64,000 bases of DNA, from IMG/VR virus record IMGVR_UViG_3300047561_001492, positions 6,103 to 70,102 of that record. One strand, written 5' to 3'. The notes under the pieces were generated by a model. It was not told where the DNA came from, did no database searches, and saw only the letters and a list, made by a program, of their open reading frames with translations. The DNA is from a virus (taxonomy: Duplodnaviria > Caudoviricetes). This document shows, in pieces, positions 53,011-63,649 of the stretch; position 1 is the stretch's first letter; every line of letters begins with the position of its first letter. The position numbers were made by a program, and so were the translations under genes.

Positions 53011-54336
53011 TTATCTAGTTTCGCGCCACTGTATATTTGCGCGCGTATTACTACTTCCAGCGCCGATTCCAGTCGCAACAATAACAAATACGTTACTATC
53101 TGTGCTGTCCATGTTTTGGCTGATGTATCCGCGCTTTGCACTTGAGATCGAAGCTGTTGCGCTAGTAGAGCTAAATTGTCCAGCGCCCTGTCCACCAGCA
53201 ATAATAAATCCTACATTGATTAACGTTCCACTGGTAAAATTAACTGATGTCGCGCCTTCATTATACTGAACAACACTGTCATTATTTGCACTCGTCCAAG
53301 TACCGCCACTTATTGAACCAGTACTTGGAAGCCGCCAAAATTCATAACTTATGGCATTATCTGCTGTATAAACATTTAGAGAGTTTGCGCGAACAACGCT
53401 TCGGTTTGGTTTACCATAATATCCAGTTTTTAGTGATATAGCTATTAATGGAAGTTTGCCCGCTGTAGTAACACTTCTTGACACGGTGTTTACTGCCGCA
53501 AAATCTACACCAGCTTCGCTGTAACCGCCCTCACTGATTACTGTGGCGCAAATTTGATCAAAGCTGTCTGTTCCAGCGGCTAGTCCAGAGTAATTTCTAA
53601 TTTCACAACGTACTGGTAGGTTTGGATTGCTCCAATAAACACTAGGCTTATTATTACTATTATAAAATTCATGTGCAATTATAATGTCGCCGTTATGAAC
53701 AAACCCCGCCCTGACTCTTCCTACTCCCAGCCATTGAAAATCAGCTGCAAATAACTGTGTTTGTGTGGTATTTAAATTAAAAAGTGATGGACCAGTACCA
53801 TCCAATTTGTCAATATTCCAACTGTTTTGCGTTACGGTTTCATCGTATACAGATCCAGAAACATTACTTCTTAAAACTATTGCTTTTGTGCCGTCGCCGC
53901 TTTGTAAGAAAAATATTCCATTATTATCATCAAATAGGCCGATACGTTTATTTGTGCCAAGTCTAGATCCTGTAAAATTAAAACTTTGAAGAGTCATTTG
54001 ACTTTTTCCTGGCATGTAGTGGTGATACATGCGACTCTGGTGAATTGTAAAATCATTTGCGCCAGTTCCTACGGTTAAGATGGCTTTGGCTTTTGTAATA
54101 TCAAAAGTAATGGCAGAACTTGTTCCACTGGTTTTTGCTAATAATTCAGTCTCTTCTCCATACACATGACTGTAATCCGCGAGCGTAAATGGGGTTGACA
54201 TTCTTTGGCGGCCAAAGGCGTCGATAGCGGCGGGTTCAAATTGATTAGTAATTGCTACTGTGGGGTTTACTACATTAACATTTAAAGGAGAGTTATTACC
54301 CTCCTGTTCTACTTTCCCTATATTTGTGATAGGCAT
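53011..54336 (-). CDS. Probable virion structural protein (441 aa)
   Basis: Beta-rich, 'DAFGRQRMSTPFTLADYSH'; GTGTAA box at 54346-54351. Confidence 0.65.
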   Translation of the reverse strand: MPITNIGKVEQEGNNSPLNVNVVNPTVAITNQFEPAAIDAFGRQRMSTPFTLADYSHVYGEETELLAKTSGTSSAITFDITKAKAILTVGTGANDFTIHQSRMYHHYMPGKSQMTLQSFNFTGSRLGTNKRIGLFDDNNGIFFLQSGDGTKAIVLRSNVSGSVYDETVTQNSWNIDKLDGTGPSLFNLNTTQTQLFAADFQWLGVGRVRAGFVHNGDIIIAHEFYNSNNKPSVYWSNPNLPVRCEIRNYSGLAAGTDSFDQICATVISEGGYSEAGVDFAAVNTVSRSVTTAGKLPLIAISLKTGYYGKPNRSVVRANSLNVYTADNAISYEFWRLPSTGSISGGTWTSANNDSVVQYNEGATSVNFTSGTLINVGFIIAGGQGAGQFSSTSATASISSAKRGYISQNMDSTDSNVFVIVATGIGAGSSNTRANIQWRETR

Positions 54337-54420
54337 GTAATTTAATTACACCAGAAATCGATAATTAATTTATTTTTATTAATTTTTTATACTATTACAG
54401 TGTTATTCCGTATTATTATT

Positions 54421-58753: not shown

Positions 58754-59005
58754 ATGGTTAATACAGACAACACCGCAAACACACAGCAACTCGACAACGT
58801 GATGCACACCGCGCGTGTCGCGCTCATCATGCGCATACGCCAAGGAATAAAAAATCGGCATGGGTTCCCCGCCTACTCTCGCAAGGGAATCCGTGAAGAC
58901 CTCCGCGCCTATCGCGTTCTCTCGAACGTGCTCGAAGTCAACGCGACCTTCTACACCTTCGACGAGTCGCAACTCCACAAGGTGAAAAAAGCCCTTGCCA
59001 AGTAA
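58754..59005 (+). CDS. Hypothetical early protein (83 aa; start 58754)
   Basis: MVNTDNTANTQQLDNVMH...; ATG 6 nt after TATACT. Confidence 0.7.
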   Translation: MVNTDNTANTQQLDNVMHTARVALIMRIRQGIKNRHGFPAYSRKGIREDLRAYRVLSNVLEVNATFYTFDESQLHKVKKALAK

Positions 59006-59030
59006 GGCGCAATCTGAAAAAATTCACACG

Positions 59031-59705
59031 ATGAAACTACTCGCAACAAACACCAAACTAGAAAAAAGCGTTGGCTACGGCTGGCGCACACTCGGACTCT
59101 CGCTCTCTCCCGCTGGCAAGAGTGGCAAACAATTCTGCCCGCATCGCTCGGCGGGATGCGAAGCCGCTTGCCTTGACACTTCAGGCATGGGCGTTTTTCA
59201 AATGGTGCAGGACGCACGGCTCGCCAAATCGCGTTACTTCATCGACAAGCGCGACGATTTTCTCGCACAGCTAAACCGCGAAATGCACAACGCGGAAAAA
59301 CTTTCCACGCGCACGAAAATCCCCGTGGCCGTTCGTCTGAACGTGCTTGCGGATCTTCCGTGGCACAAGCTAGTTGATATGGAAAAATTTTCCAACGTGC
59401 AGTTTTATGATTACACGCCGAACCTCGACCGCATGATGGAATTTTTGCGCGGCGAGTTGCCGAAAAATTATCATCTTACCTTCTCGCGCAAGGAGGACAA
59501 TCAACACAAGGTTCATGCCGTTCTCGCCGCTGGCGGCAACGTGGCCGTGGCGTTCAATCGTTTGCCAGAAACCTATCTCGGCTTGCCAGTCATCGACGGC
59601 GATAAAAGCGACTTGCGTTTTCTCGACGCGCAAAACGTGATCGTCGGACTCAAAGCCAAGGGCAAAGGCAAACACGATACCTCTGGCTTCGTGGTTCAAA
59701 TATAA
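59031..59705 (+). CDS. Gp88-like protein (mycobacteriophage gene 88 family) with Cx6Cx3C motif (224 aa; start 59031)
   Basis: 'TNTKLEKS...LSLSPA...CPHRSAGCEAACL...VRLNVLADLPW...QFYDYT...YHLTFS...GGNVAV...DGDKSDLRFLD...GLKAKG'. Confidence 0.75.
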   Translation: MKLLATNTKLEKSVGYGWRTLGLSLSPAGKSGKQFCPHRSAGCEAACLDTSGMGVFQMVQDARLAKSRYFIDKRDDFLAQLNREMHNAEKLSTRTKIPVAVRLNVLADLPWHKLVDMEKFSNVQFYDYTPNLDRMMEFLRGELPKNYHLTFSRKEDNQHKVHAVLAAGGNVAVAFNRLPETYLGLPVIDGDKSDLRFLDAQNVIVGLKAKGKGKHDTSGFVVQI

Positions 59706-59951: not shown

Positions 59952-60028
59952 ATAAAGCGTTGAAAATCAACGACTTACGGCGGCGCGCCCCGCCGCGCGG
60001 CGTAAGTGCTTGAAAATCAACAGCTTAT
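59952..60028. repeat. 77-bp element, copy D
   Basis: ATAAAGCGTTGAAAATCAACGACTTACG-GCGGCGCGCCCCGCCGCGCGG-CGTAAGTGCTTGAAAATCAACAGCTTAT. Confidence 0.9.
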
Positions 60029-60040
60029 AAAACATGCCTC

Positions 60041-60267: not shown

Positions 60268-60462
60268 ATGACAAACAACACCACGAAATGCCCCAAGTGC
60301 GGGGGCAACGCAACACGCACCTACGAGCCACCCTACCAAGAATACGCTGGAGCCAGCGTGCAGGGCGGCTACTACTACGTCGAGTGCTCGTGCGGTCACG
60401 AGGGCCACGAAAAGGCCGACCTCTCCGACTACGACTACATGGAGAACACGCGCGGCTGGTAG
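60268..60462 (+). CDS. Zinc-ribbon early protein (64 aa)
   Basis: 'KCPKCGG...YVECSCGH'. Confidence 0.7.
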   Translation: MTNNTTKCPKCGGNATRTYEPPYQEYAGASVQGGYYYVECSCGHEGHEKADLSDYDYMENTRGW

Positions 60463-60477
60463 CGCACACACTCAAAC

Positions 60478-60512
60478 GCTTGGCACGCCATATGCGTGTC
60501 AAGCTTTTTTTT
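60478..60512 (+). terminator. Intrinsic terminator upstream of copy E
   Basis: GCTTGGCACGC-CATAT-GCGTGTCAAGC-T8; same arms as 57021-57055. Confidence 0.85.
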
Positions 60513-60530
60513 GCAAAAATCTTATGTTAC

Positions 60531-60644
60531 GTAAAGCGTTGGAAATCAACAACTTACGCCGCCACGCCCCGCCGACCCGCGTAAGTCCTTGAATATCAGC
60601 ACTTTGCAAAAAATTGGTGCAAGTCGTTGAAAATCAACATTTTA
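60531..60644. repeat. 77-bp element, copy E (60531-60607), plus a third arm (60619-60644)
   Basis: GTAAAGCGTTGGAAATCAACAACTTACG-core-CGTAAGTCCTTGAATATCAGCACTTTGC; extra GCAAGTCGTTGAAAATCAACATTTAT. Confidence 0.9.
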
Positions 60645-60664
60645 TAGAAAATGGGGGTATATTA

Positions 60665-60753
60665 CTATTTGCTATTTGTCTATTTCCTATTTAGCAATTT
60701 CCTATTTCACTATTTCATATTTCACTATTTAGCAATTTGATAGTTCGCTATTT
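60665..60753. repeat. Tandem CTATTT-type microrepeat array (~12 units, period 7-8 nt)
   Basis: ctatttg ctatttgt ctatttc ctatttag caatttc ctatttca ctatttca tatttca ctatttag caatttga ... ctattt. Confidence 0.9.
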
Positions 60754-60878
60754 TAACAAAAATTTTATATTTGTCGAAATATTGGGGAACTTTCGACAGG
60801 TTTTCCCAACGTGTCGATAGCTTCGACATGAAAAAAGTCCTTGCTATTTCTACTATTTGGGCTATACTAGATGAACAT

Positions 60879-60952
60879 GGGGGTGAAGCATTAAAGTGAT
60901 GCAACGGACTTTTAATCCGTAGAAGAGGGCGCGTTACCCTCCATCCCCACCA
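60879..60952 (+). tRNA. trnK: tRNA-Lys(UUU), non-canonical T-loop and position 8
   Basis: GGGGGTG/CATCCCC acceptor, GCAT/ATGC D-stem, ACGGA/TCCGT stem with CT-TTT-AA loop, GAGGG/CCCTC T-stem, discriminator A, encoded CCA; own promoter TTGCTA-16-TATACT. Confidence 0.9.
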
Positions 60953-61018
60953 AAACTTTCTGAAAAATAATCAAAAAAACCCATTGACTAGACCATCAAA
61001 AAGACCTATTCTATATAA

Positions 61019-61282
61019 ATGAAAGCACTACTAAAGAAGATCAAACTGGCAATCGCAGACTCCAAGTTCGGACAACTCTCCAATCCTGTGTATAGGTTGA
61101 AGTATCGTCCTTACACGGACGAGGGAAACAAGGAGGTTTATGACTACCTCGTTTCCAGACCCTTCGACGGGTGGGTGAATGGATTCACCGCCTATGCTTT
61201 CGGCAAAGGCGTTCGTAGGTTCCGCTTCGACGAGATCGTTGATCGTGAAGTAGTTCAGATCTTTGGAAAATCTGTGGCGTAA
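61019..61282 (+). CDS. WYL-like domain protein (87 aa)
   Basis: 'RLKYRPY...FTAYAFGKGVRRFRFDEI' resembles the WYL 'R.FR.DRI' end; TAA sits in a GTGGCG/CGCCAC hairpin loop. Confidence 0.55.
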   Translation: MKALLKKIKLAIADSKFGQLSNPVYRLKYRPYTDEGNKEVYDYLVSRPFDGWVNGFTAYAFGKGVRRFRFDEIVDREVVQIFGKSVA

Positions 61283-61297
61283 CGCCACGCAATATAA

Positions 61298-61922
61298 TCT
61301 GCTCGACAATCAATATCGGAAACAAAAGAAGCAAAGTTAAACGGATCTTTGCGGTGGTCGCGTAAGCGAAAATCAAACATCCGCCGAAGCAGATAACAAT
61401 TTTTAGTTCTTTTACATTTTAGATTTTGCTGTGGTCATTGAGGGGTTTGCAACTGCGGATAGACTGAGAGGTTTACCAAAGGCAAATAGCGACCTGAGCC
61501 ACAGCACAATTTTTTCCGAACGTTTCGATGCGCGTCTTCATGGCGCGGGAACAAACGCAGAGGAAAAACCTCTCCCAAGCTCTGGCGGATACATCTCCGT
61601 TCAACTTGTGAGCTAATTGCCGAAAGGCGATTTGATGTCGGTGCCGCCAGAAGGCACGGAGTCAACGGCAGGGAGTTCTGGCCTCCCTGTCACTACTTTT
61701 ATAATTTAGAGGTTTGCATGGCGCATTGATCATGCAAAGCAAATCAGAAAGTTGTGTTTTCTGAGCCTCTATCTTTTGCATAGAAAATGCGCAATAGTTC
61801 AAAGCAAACTTTAACTATTCTGCAAAAACTATGCGCAATACTTTTGGAGCAACCACAAACCCTCTGGTATTAGGCGGCTGGAAGAAATTGGAAAGTTCTC
61901 TGGCGTAAGTCCTGCTCCGAAA
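61298..61922 (+). ncRNA. Candidate large structured RNA (or cluster of structured RNAs), family unknown
   Basis: No credible ORF; ~6 consecutive stem-closed domains, GNRA loops, complementary loop pairs (see findings). Strand inferred from neighbours and GNRA orientation. Confidence 0.65.
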
Positions 61923-61939
61923 TCTTTTAAAATAAAATT

Positions 61940-62161
61940 ATGAATGACATACAAAAATACTGCCTAATCGCTTTGGGCCTAATCGTCTTCGTCTCTCTTA
62001 TCGGAGGCGGCGGCGGCAAACGAACGGACGGAGTCTATGAGAGTGCCATGAGTAAACTTGACTCTGGTCGTCCTCTTAATGATAGGGAACAGCAAAGAAT
62101 TTCTGATATAGTTAACTGGTGTTCTGCACACAATAGGCCGATTAGAGAGTGCAATCACTAA
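61940..62161 (+). CDS. Membrane-anchored/secreted small protein (73 aa)
   Basis: Hydrophobic N-terminus, Gly5 linker, C-terminal C-x2-H...C; TAA lies in the left arm of copy F. Confidence 0.7.
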   Translation: MNDIQKYCLIALGLIVFVSLIGGGGGKRTDGVYESAMSKLDSGRPLNDREQQRISDIVNWCSAHNRPIRECNH

Positions 62162-62234
62162 AGCCTTATAAATCAACCACTTACGGCAGCGCGCCCGCCC
62201 CGCGCGCGCAACCCCTTGATATTCAAGCACTTAC
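62158..62234. repeat. 77-bp element, copy F
   Basis: CTAAAGCCTTATAAATCAACCACTTACG-GCAGCGCGCCCGCCCCGCGCG-CGCAACCCCTTGATATTCAAGCACTTAC. Confidence 0.85.
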
Positions 62235-63390: not shown

Positions 63391-63576
63391 ATGAAACCAC
63401 GCAAATATAAAATAAAAAAGGTGTCTTTTACTATGATGAGGAACGGCCCTACAAAAATTGGGATAAAAATATATTCACGCCGTAAAAAGAAAATTAAAAA
63501 AGCGCAAACAGCATGGCCCCTGCCTTGGACACCATTACCCCATAAAAAAATCCTACTTGCTTACGATATAGCCTAA
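63391..63576 (+). CDS. Basic hypothetical protein (61 aa)
   Basis: ORF track; TAA lies in the left arm of copy G. Confidence 0.5.
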   Translation: MKPRKYKIKKVSFTMMRNGPTKIGIKIYSRRKKKIKKAQTAWPLPWTPLPHKKILLAYDIA

Positions 63577-63649
63577 ACCATTCAAAATCAAGGACTTAAG
63601 GCGGCGCGCCCCGCCGCGCGGCCTAAGTTGTTGATATTCAAGCACTTGT
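63573..63649. repeat. 77-bp element, copy G
   Basis: CTAAACCATTCAAAATCAAGGACTTAAG-GCGGCGCGCCCCGCCGCGCGG-CCTAAGTTGTTGATATTCAAGCACTTGT; no sigma54 site on its right. Confidence 0.85.

Follow-up and report, generated by a model that had tools for sequence, protein, structure and literature searches.

As judged by comparison with 25 related contigs from phages and metagenomes, a 657-nt gene-free stretch in the DNA of an uncultivated freshwater phage is very probably a string of separately conserved small folded RNAs and not one large RNA. The stretch occupies positions 61283-61939 of the window, by which we mean the whole 64,000 nt of DNA that was analyzed (bases 6103-70102 of a 70.1-kb IMG/VR virus record with a completeness estimate of 47%), and it is bounded by the open reading frame (ORF) of an 87-residue protein, orf87 (61019-61282), and that of a second small protein, orf73 (61940-62161). 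Its constant unit, which we call module G (61570-61700), is a 131-nt RNA present as 20 distinct sequences in 5 IMG/VR and 19 metagenome contigs, and the evidence below supports its being an uncatalogued + strand RNA (no Rfam 15 family) in which two hairpins carry mutually complementary 7-nt loops. An earlier note on this DNA had taken the stretch for a single RNA or ribozyme of ~630 nt; only the 131 nt of G prove to be common to the relatives, the other modules coming, going, and changing order. What stands of that proposal is an unclassified, + strand structured RNA with a loop-loop signature, and not a single ~630-nt RNA or ribozyme.

A mosaic of modules 3′ of orf87

Relatives were found through the 87-residue protein (two IMG/VR contigs) and through exact-word core scans (three IMG/VR and 19 metagenome contigs); going by the record names, the contigs that bear the element come from freshwater and estuarine metagenomes. 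Different parts of the stretch are matched in very different numbers of loci: 20 for G (61570-61700), 9-13 for the region of module A (61284-61402), 4-5 for module D (61425-61506), two for module X (61508-61569), four for the core of module J (61778-61811), and none among the related contigs for module I (61709-61776) or for 61812-61939. The loci nevertheless follow one plan, with everything on one strand: orf87, variable modules, G, often a further module H (~185 nt), and usually tRNA-Cys(GCA), which lies 3′ of G in 15 loci and starts 1-9 nt past it in L003, L200, L194, and L183. The variable modules that precede G are ~60-145 nt long, and their set and order differ (A, B, C, D, E, F, X, Y3), B-C in some phages being C-B in others. 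The array in the window reads A-D-X-G-I-J-K and has neither H nor tRNA-Cys. Where the left neighbors of G differ, their junctions with G fall at the same base, directly 5′ of (A)CTCTCCC, which argues that the modules are discrete units exchanged by recombination. Such exchange rules out a single conserved architecture of ~630 nt, and it equally rules out a core assembled from pieces of A, D, and G, as would be needed for the group I-like pairings drawn in the earlier note, whose parts are not co-inherited and give no covariance-model match.

Wider word searches added little. A 14-mer scan with GGAGTCAACGGCAG gave at least 115 matches, all attributable to chance except those in two contigs already known, and the gapped pattern AAGCTCTG...TCAACTT...AGCTA gave 27 new loci, each of which lies in coding DNA and is a chance match; with a second gapped pattern, every contig recovered was already known. 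An 18-mer scan of one genome per prokaryote species gave one chance match and no G, and hence neither a prophage copy nor a clue to the host.

Module G

The preferred fold of G is made of five local helices, listed here with the whole module.

61570..61700, + strand: module G, constant 131-nt RNA
61572-79 with 61605-12, + strand: helix 1
61584-89 with 61596-601, + strand: hairpin a
61615-21 with 61626-32, + strand: GNRA hairpin
61641-45 with 61653-57, + strand: hairpin 1, with loop L1 at 61646-52
61667-75 with 61683-91, + strand: hairpin 2, with loop L2 at 61676-82
61646-52 and 61676-82, + strand: L1 (GCCAGAA) and L2 (UUCUGGC), a proposed 7-bp loop-loop helix, invariant in 20/20 sequences and altered in the diverged copy L218

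The 20 distinct sequences are 90-95% identical over the 131 nt, compared with 80-95% for the adjacent orf87 DNA, and the module ends 3′ in a CUUU tail; in four relatives a tRNA gene begins 8-9 nt past the stem of hairpin 2. Variation clusters in the GNRA hairpin, whose stem stays paired and whose loop is GAAA, GCAA, or GUAA. Four of its seven pairs are changed on both sides (columns 70-83, 71-82, 72-81, and 73-80), and at pair 97-107 of hairpin 1, 18 sequences have C-G and two have U-A. Counted over the whole structure, double changes occupy 24 cells, whereas column shuffles give 5.3 +/- 3.1; the signal is lost when the partners are slid by 1-3 columns. G·U pairs occur at four positions, in 12, 5, 4, and 19 sequences. 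Read from the opposite strand they would become A·C mismatches, which identifies the RNA strand of G as +, the strand of tRNA-Cys; the GNRA loops of G also fit the + strand only.

Two folds of G are nearly isoenergetic, at -51.1 and -50.3 kcal/mol. The minimum free energy (MFE) fold uses a long-range helix, GCUCUGGCGG/CCGCCAGAAGGC, two pairs of which are each broken in two sequences, whereas in the local-hairpin fold the same substitutions fall in a loop or make a compensatory change from C-G to U-A in hairpin 1. The long-range helix, broken in four sequences where the local hairpin is compensated, was therefore rejected as the conserved fold, and we prefer the local one. A covariance model of G, R1, scores its members at 152-163 bits. 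It found no second copy in the window, in the other searched loci, or in the one genome-collection locus from the word scan, nothing in the distant orf87 loci L211-L216, and only chance-level scores (<=8 bits, E >= 0.2) in L219 and L220.

A diverged copy and the proposed pairing of two loops

The exact complementarity of the loops GCCAGAA and TTCTGGC was reported in the earlier note and is confirmed; they cap stems of 5 and 9 bp. Invariance of both loops in all 20 G sequences is consistent with a constrained interaction, although it cannot prove one. More informative is a diverged copy of G at L218:927-1084, which lies 3′ of an orf87 homologue with 67-70% identity and shares with G AAGCUCUG, UCAACUU, AGCUA, the GCC-GAAA-GGC hairpin, and GUCGAUGUC. 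Folded independently, its MFE structure contains the GNRA hairpin and hairpins 1 and 2, the former with a 7-nt loop, and the copy retains every helix of G with altered sequence. The changes are compensatory: hairpin 1 is UGUCCG/CGGACA compared with GUGCC/GGCAC in G, hairpin 2 is CGGGCGC/GCGCCCG, and helix 1 is GGAAG/CUUCC. Within the homologous loops, L218 holds GCCAAG and CUUGGC, which make six contiguous pairs and differ from those of G at the fifth (G-C to A-U) and the sixth (A-U to G-C). The covariation check proposed for the kissing loops thus gave a mixed answer, with two loop-loop pairs covarying in one sequence and the loops invariant in the other 20; covariation of this extent is suggestive of a loop-loop helix.

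The L1/L2 duplex has a calculated energy of -9.7 kcal/mol. Because only 2-3 nt join the bases of the two loop arms in the preferred fold, a full 7-bp loop-loop helix would be strained within one molecule and formed more easily between two, and formation of a dimer or ring by G is a live possibility.

Coding, folding, and database searches

No ORF crosses 61283-61939 under translation table 11, table 4, or codes that read TAG or TAA as glutamine, the largest ORFs covering only a fraction of the stretch, and the description of the stretch as ORF-free is thereby upheld under four genetic codes. An ORF of 61 residues with a GTG start (61431-61616) was rejected because it crosses three modules that lack synteny in the relatives. 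The + strand of the whole stretch folds at an MFE of -198.2 kcal/mol against -177.4 +/- 6.9 for shuffles (z -3.0), and the - strand at z -1.8. Folded separately, 61297-61394, 61425-61506, 61508-61569, 61570-61700, 61707-61772, and 61773-61840 reach z -2.1 to -3.8. Since the - strand folds about equally well for most modules (z -1.7 to -3.4), the strand call comes from the G·U pairs and the orientation of the tRNA, not from folding energy.

These six pieces bear out the idea of stem-closed domains in the earlier note, with two corrections: the domain placed at ~61516-61641 straddles the independently inherited modules X and G, and the one placed at 61842-61922 falls in a region (61841-61925) that folds like its shuffles and has no homologue. 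The two GNRA hairpins lie where they had been claimed, TCGC-GTAA-GCGA at 61358-61369 and AATTGCC-GAAA-GGCGATT at 61615-61632. Two further complementarities did not hold up, GCGCATT/AATGCGC and GAGAGGTTT/AAACCTCTC; both are at chance level, and their partner modules are missing from most relatives. Inverted 7-mers number 27 in the stretch against 20.9 +/- 6.0 in shuffles, and inverted 9-mers 1 against 1.4 +/- 1.6. In the MFE fold of J, moreover, AAUGCGC is partly inside the stem of J itself, which leaves the proposed pairing between loops of I and J unsupported.

Rfam 15 contains no family that matches 61283-61939 at gathering scores or even at E <= 10, and this covers group I introns, GOLLD, ROOL, and RNase P, for which a check had been suggested; the only Rfam family match near the stretch is a tRNA at 60879-60949. 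A blastn search of the stretch against 50,697 GenBank phages gave no match.

The other modules of the array

Around G, the array contains the following elements.

61274..61288, + strand: hairpin GTGGCG-TAA-CGCCAC, which includes the orf87 stop codon; its counterpart in relatives is GTGGC-GTAAA-GCCAC
61297..61394, + strand: module A, ~98 nt, ~92% identity across its 9-13 loci
61399..61420, + strand: AU-rich linker TTTTTAGTTCTTTTACATTTT, which recurs 3′ of A or C in 8-13 loci
61425..61506, + strand: module D, ~82-nt long hairpin with conserved internal-loop sequences, 4-5 loci, z -2.3
61508..61569, + strand: module X, ~62-nt hairpin, two other loci, one of them outside the array, z -2.7
61707..61772, + strand: module I, two-hairpin unit, z -3.0, no homologue in any locus
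61773..61840, + strand: module J, long hairpin, z -3.8
61841..61939, + strand: K, a spacer or leader before orf73, z -0.26 (61841-61925), no homologue, not supported as a structured RNA

Module A consists of a closing helix (ATCTGCY/RGCAGAT), a CCGA...TCGG hairpin, an A-rich junction, and an arm (CGGAT/ATCCG) that bears a GNRA-capped insert at 61358-61369, which is missing in L003. The closing helix covaries, with U-A in the window, L183, and L206 and C-G elsewhere; L220 alters two further pairs of the module, and the inner loop is GTAA, GAAA, or GCAA depending on the sequence. The AU-rich linker that follows is a candidate cleavage site; the linker motif TTTTAGTWYK is not enriched in the window. 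The closing helix of D is preserved in L218 by a change from U-A to C-G, and the core of J (61778-61811) recurs 3′ of tRNA-Cys in four relatives.

Module H, found between G and tRNA-Cys, is a conserved folded RNA of ~185 nt that begins with UAGUCAGAACCYACUGAUGA and ends with GCAGCCGAAC. It is present at L149:5466-5650 and also in L002, L124, L187, L193, L203, L204, L208, L209, L210, and L220, the last of which has H without G; in the one H-bearing locus that was scanned (L002), H matched no Rfam family at E <= 1. A short hairpin of the form CCGA(U)/(A)UCGG, with an A-rich run after it, is the first element 3′ of orf87 in both close and distant relatives: in A and B (window 61303-61325; L003:4367-4446) and at L211:4255-4295, L214:4095-4130, and L215:2250-2300. 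It could be a protein-binding or processing site.

orf87, its promoter, and orf73

The genes that flank the array, and the promoter that precedes it, are as follows.

60984..61012, + strand: sigma-70-like promoter, TTGACT, 17-nt spacer, TATTCT; the -10 box ends 6 nt before the ATG (leaderless)
61019..61282, + strand: orf87, 87 residues, which directly precedes the RNA array wherever a relative has sufficient upstream sequence
61940..62161, + strand: orf73, small protein with a hydrophobic N terminus, no promoter of its own

A scan of the + strand over 61013-61939 found no promoter-like site, the promoter at 60984..61012 being the only one found upstream of the array on that strand. Genes of the + strand arm of the window are preceded by TTGAC-N17-TATTCT promoters whose last base lies 6 nt before the ATG, suggesting that the mRNAs of this arm are leaderless. 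Because orf73 lacks its own promoter, it is probably the last gene of the unit formed by orf87 and the array; partial homologues lie 3′ of G or H in L206 and L208.

The orf87 protein has 44 homologue clusters, and no Pfam family matches any of 28 members even at E <= 10. Searches of PHROGs with orf87, orf73, and their neighbors found no family, except for a weak Lar-like match of the ORF at 60268-60462. The AlphaFold model of orf87 (AF2; predicted local distance difference test score, pLDDT, 88) has an N-terminal helix and a bent sheet of five to six strands that forms a barrel. In Foldseek the model is closest to the WYL domains of PafBC, BrxR, CapW, and DriD (probability 0.9-1.0, E 0.01-0.5), and VIA-align gives Z 4.8-5.8 to those domains, tied with Hfq and Sm. 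An invariant stretch, G-x-G-(V/I)-R-R-F-R-(F/Y)-D, runs through the homologues. WYL domains are Sm folds with a conserved arginine loop, and WYL1 binds single-stranded RNA (PMC6789036, PMC6547453). It is thus reasonable to call the modeled orf87 protein WYL-like at the level of fold, which does not imply membership of the family. The link that the earlier note drew between the stretch and a WYL-like protein therefore stands as strict synteny with the 87-residue gene and as a likeness of fold, not as a Pfam match.

tRNA genes and distant relatives

At 60879-60949 the window has a tRNA-Lys(UUU)-like gene that scores 47.4 bits with the Rfam tRNA model, has the T-loop CGCGUUA, and is not called by ARAGORN, which finds no tRNA anywhere in the 64-kb window. 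Relatives have a regular tRNA-Trp and tRNA-Lys in this place (L002:3648-3795, L003:2985-3138). The earlier note had suggested that the stretch might work with this odd tRNA, and that link is not sustained, the gene lying upstream of the promoter of the operon. The tRNA model (RF00005) finds nothing among the modules of 61283-61939 at E <= 10.

Downstream of the most distant orf87 homologues, with 52-59% identity, there is no G. Instead, an ORF-free region of 0.4-1.1 kb contains canonical tRNAs, irregular ones (with odd anticodon loops, or in forms of 98-117 nt with inserts), and other folded RNAs, for which no Rfam family except tRNA scores above threshold. These arrays suggest that the slot 3′ of orf87 is an RNA-gene island of the phages, which the clade of the window fills mostly with modules that are not tRNAs. 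Matches to the tRNA model of 98-117 nt whose anticodon arm has long inserts, and tRNAs with irregular anticodon loops, are at L211:4391-4507, L215:2608-2705, L215:2449-2602, and L216:721-796; a weak match to YrlA (Y RNA-like), of 29 bits, coincides in part with one of them. Within the tRNA array of L215, a GC-rich folded stretch of ~250 nt (2715-2960; the same in L216:960-1210) has no Rfam match.

Setting in the phage genome

The array belongs to the + strand arm of the window, which begins at ~54.4 kb and has 45-50% GC; the - strand arm carries structural genes at ~30% GC. The shift between the - strand late arm and the + strand early arm is abrupt, at window positions ~54000-54400. A virion protein encoded at 53011-54336 is 37-41% identical to proteins of cyanophages and of Puniceispirillum phage HMO-2011. 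In the early arm, 58995-59705 encodes a 236-residue protein of Pfam family GP88 (PF17338, E 2e-38), a family that L211, a distant relative, likewise encodes upstream of its orf87 homologue, and 60268-60462 encodes a 64-residue zinc-ribbon protein, the one with the weak Lar-like match (restriction alleviation; phrog_599, E 0.0012). Tandem CTATTT/CAATTT units, about a dozen in all, and then short hairpins occupy 60640-60860, directly upstream of the tRNA-like gene, and could be an origin or a protein-binding array. Long palindromes with GC cores, of the type CAAGCACTTACG ... CGTAAGTGCTTGA, lie at 59952-60030, 60531-60607, 62158-62234, and 63573-63649; they close each small transcription unit of the early arm, and elements of the same kind occur 3′ of tRNA-Cys in relatives.

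Discussion

Taken as a whole, the probable explanation of the stretch is a co-transcribed and processed array of small stable RNAs that form new families with respect to Rfam. The parts of this explanation differ in strength. Its structural and evolutionary part is highly likely: A, D, X, G, I, and J would be independently folding RNAs set between AU-rich linkers, in a slot where more distant relatives have tRNA arrays, with recombination shuffling modules between phages and G kept constant among those that carry it, its five local helices presenting two 7-nt hairpin loops that may pair with each other. Co-transcription and processing are also likely, with somewhat less assurance. A single early leaderless unit would run from the promoter at 60984-61012 through orf87, the RNA array, and orf73 to the palindromic element at ~62158; host RNases may cleave the precursor in the linkers, and RNase P would cleave at the 5′ end of tRNA-Cys in those relatives that have it, releasing stable RNAs of ~60-130 nt analogous to T4 rnaC/rnaD. 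More tentatively, the Sm/WYL-like orf87 protein may bind the RNAs or the single-stranded linkers, as a chaperone or as a partner in a ribonucleoprotein (RNP), a step we regard as possible and somewhat doubtful. That the RNAs act in trans early in infection, in host takeover or counter-defense, is conceivable, and a counter-defense role in particular is rather unlikely; the sole hint to it is the Lar-like match of the neighboring ORF at 60268-60462. We also speculate, as an improbable extension, that G is self-assembling, its loops pairing between molecules hand in hand to give dimers or rings and forming with orf87 an early phage RNP that might, for example, soak up a host nuclease or a sensor of single-stranded RNA.

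Several points tell against this explanation. Transcription of the array, the ends of the RNAs, and their stability are all things that we infer from the DNA sequence. Only 5 of the 46 counted pairs of G vary on both sides in the main clade, because G is so conserved, and covariation support for helix 1, hairpin a, and hairpin 2 comes from L218 alone. The L218 match is itself weak, at 13.3 bits (E 0.013 in a 5.8-kb search and 0.5 in a 221-kb search), and the covariation of its two loop-loop pairs, seen in that one sequence, would by a rough estimate arise by chance about 1 time in 16 given that the loops changed. G is missing from L220, which has A, B, and H. The orf87 protein lacks a match to the Pfam WYL family (PF13280), its fold scores are middling (Z < 6), and its adjacency to the RNAs could be mere gene order.

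The alternative closest to our explanation is a single modular RNA of the GOLLD/ROOL type, a particle of ~0.65-1 kb in which G would be the conserved core and the upstream modules peripheral domains open to exchange. Published descriptions give GOLLD a conserved and a variable half and place it beside phage tRNAs; here, too, G is constant and the 5′ modules are variable, the whole stretch folds at z -3.0, and the complementary loops could drive assembly of multimers. We consider it improbable, as neither RF01998 nor RF03087 matches even at E <= 10, no conserved long-range helix links the modules, long-range complementarities are at chance level, the order of modules changes, and the recombination junctions lie exactly at module edges. 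Less probable again, and in our view unlikely, is that G is a cis-regulatory leader in which hairpin 2 and the CUUU tail would terminate transcription conditionally, with the alternative pairing of GCCGCCAGA to CUCUGGCGG as the switch, and would thereby control read-through to H, tRNA-Cys, or orf73. A terminator scan does flag 61667-61691 plus ACTACTTTTA, and the two near-isoenergetic folds of G would suit a switch, but the run of 3-5 U is short and 5 nt away from the stem, the downstream element varies by phage (tRNA-Cys, H, or I/J), and four sequences break the alternative helix, which L218 preserves poorly.

The array of co-transcribed small RNAs is preferred even more clearly over the remaining readings. 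Because distant relatives have tRNA arrays in this slot, irregular tRNAs included, because the modules are near tRNA size, and because the tRNA-Lys-like gene upstream of the operon in the window is also irregular, one could see in the modules decayed or derived tRNA genes, functionless relics of a tRNA array. This is very unlikely given the strong purifying selection on G and A (90-95% identity with compensatory changes), the failure of any module to match the tRNA model at E <= 10, and the lack of a T-arm or acceptor helix in G. An element that acts as DNA, such as an origin, a packaging site, or a recombination hotspot, would account for hairpin-rich DNA near a CTATTT repeat array (~60650-60740) and for the folding of the - strand at z -1.7 to -3.4 for most modules. 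It would not account for G·U pairs, which cruciform DNA and the opposite strand would render as A·C mismatches, for GNRA loops kept as a class, which is a feature of RNA, or for an orientation fixed relative to tRNA-Cys, and we give it hardly any credence. As little can be given to a self-splicing group I intron or another ribozyme, which the short R/S-like strings TAGACTG and AGTCA, together with the GNRA loops, might recall. The proposed paired pieces lie in D and G, D is missing from most loci, RF00028 finds nothing in 61283-61939 (E <= 10; criterion 50 bits), its sole weak match being one of 13.7 bits at 60500-60743 on the - strand, and no self-cleaving ribozyme family of Rfam matches at E <= 10. 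The flanking ORFs are complete and unrelated, and the downstream neighbor differs between phages, so that the absence of exon context remarked on in the earlier note holds; the group I intron is refuted by the covariance-model and exon-context tests together.

The finding of a new RNA family, or set of families, is solid. About a dozen folded modules uncatalogued in Rfam act as exchangeable cassettes, one of them nearly invariant, and all lie 3′ of a conserved gene with a nucleic acid-binding fold. If expressed, G would be a compact new RNA family with a testable loop-loop interaction and a candidate protein partner, and the array points to RNA effectors as a possible regular component of early programs in freshwater phages. 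If G and orf87 do assemble in the way speculated on above, the complex would be a phage RNP of a new class, with the shuffled modules as a toolbox of further RNA effectors.

Among known systems, the closest in scale are T4 rnaC and rnaD (species 1 and 2; NC_000866 70908-71171), which, like G, are small folded RNAs (119-139 nt). They are encoded next to phage tRNAs and on their strand, at the distal end of the cluster, much as G lies 1-9 nt from tRNA-Cys in several relatives. They differ in that rnaC has a tRNA-type T-arm, CCGGGUUCGAAUCCCGG, which G does not, and in that an Sm/WYL-like gene precedes the array here, whose modules are shuffled between phages; R1 found nothing in the T4 tRNA region, and G has no sequence or model similarity to rnaC/rnaD. 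Phage tRNA islands have long been a source of unexplained small stable RNAs, and T4 rnaC/rnaD are not known to have a function. The likeness to GOLLD (RF01998) and ROOL (RF03087) raised in the earlier note holds for context, namely a phage or prophage site near tRNAs with a variable 5′ part and a constant part, and not for a covariance-model match; the conserved unit here is 131 nt, not 500-800 nt, and the modules are separate, not parts of one architecture. The packaging RNA of phi29, pRNA, assembles into rings via complementary loops. G resembles it in principle, as an RNA of ~120 nt with two mutually complementary loops that could pair between molecules, but its proposed loop helix has 7 bp rather than 4, it matches nothing in Rfam, and its locus belongs to the early region of a large tailed phage and is not linked to packaging genes.

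The orf87 protein shares an Sm-like barrel and an N-terminal helix with WYL proteins (PafBC, BrxR, CapW, DriD, and Cas13d WYL1) and with Hfq, and its arginine-rich G-x-G-V-R-R-F-R-F-D stretch resembles the two-arginine loop of PafBC. Single-stranded nucleic acid is the ligand of such domains. Unlike the WYL proteins, it is a stand-alone domain of 87 residues, phage-encoded, with neither a helix-turn-helix nor a WCX domain. A survey of intergenic regions in IMG/VR reported thousands of unnamed phage RNA motifs, tRNA-like ones included (PMC10690425); that survey mined the same type of data as we used, and the novelty of the modules here is judged against Rfam. The stretch is of a known kind, since phage tRNA islands are known to hold small RNAs that lack an explanation. 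Its new features are the set of modules, their cassette-like shuffling, the constant RNA with its putative kissing loops, and the tie to a stand-alone Sm/WYL-like gene.

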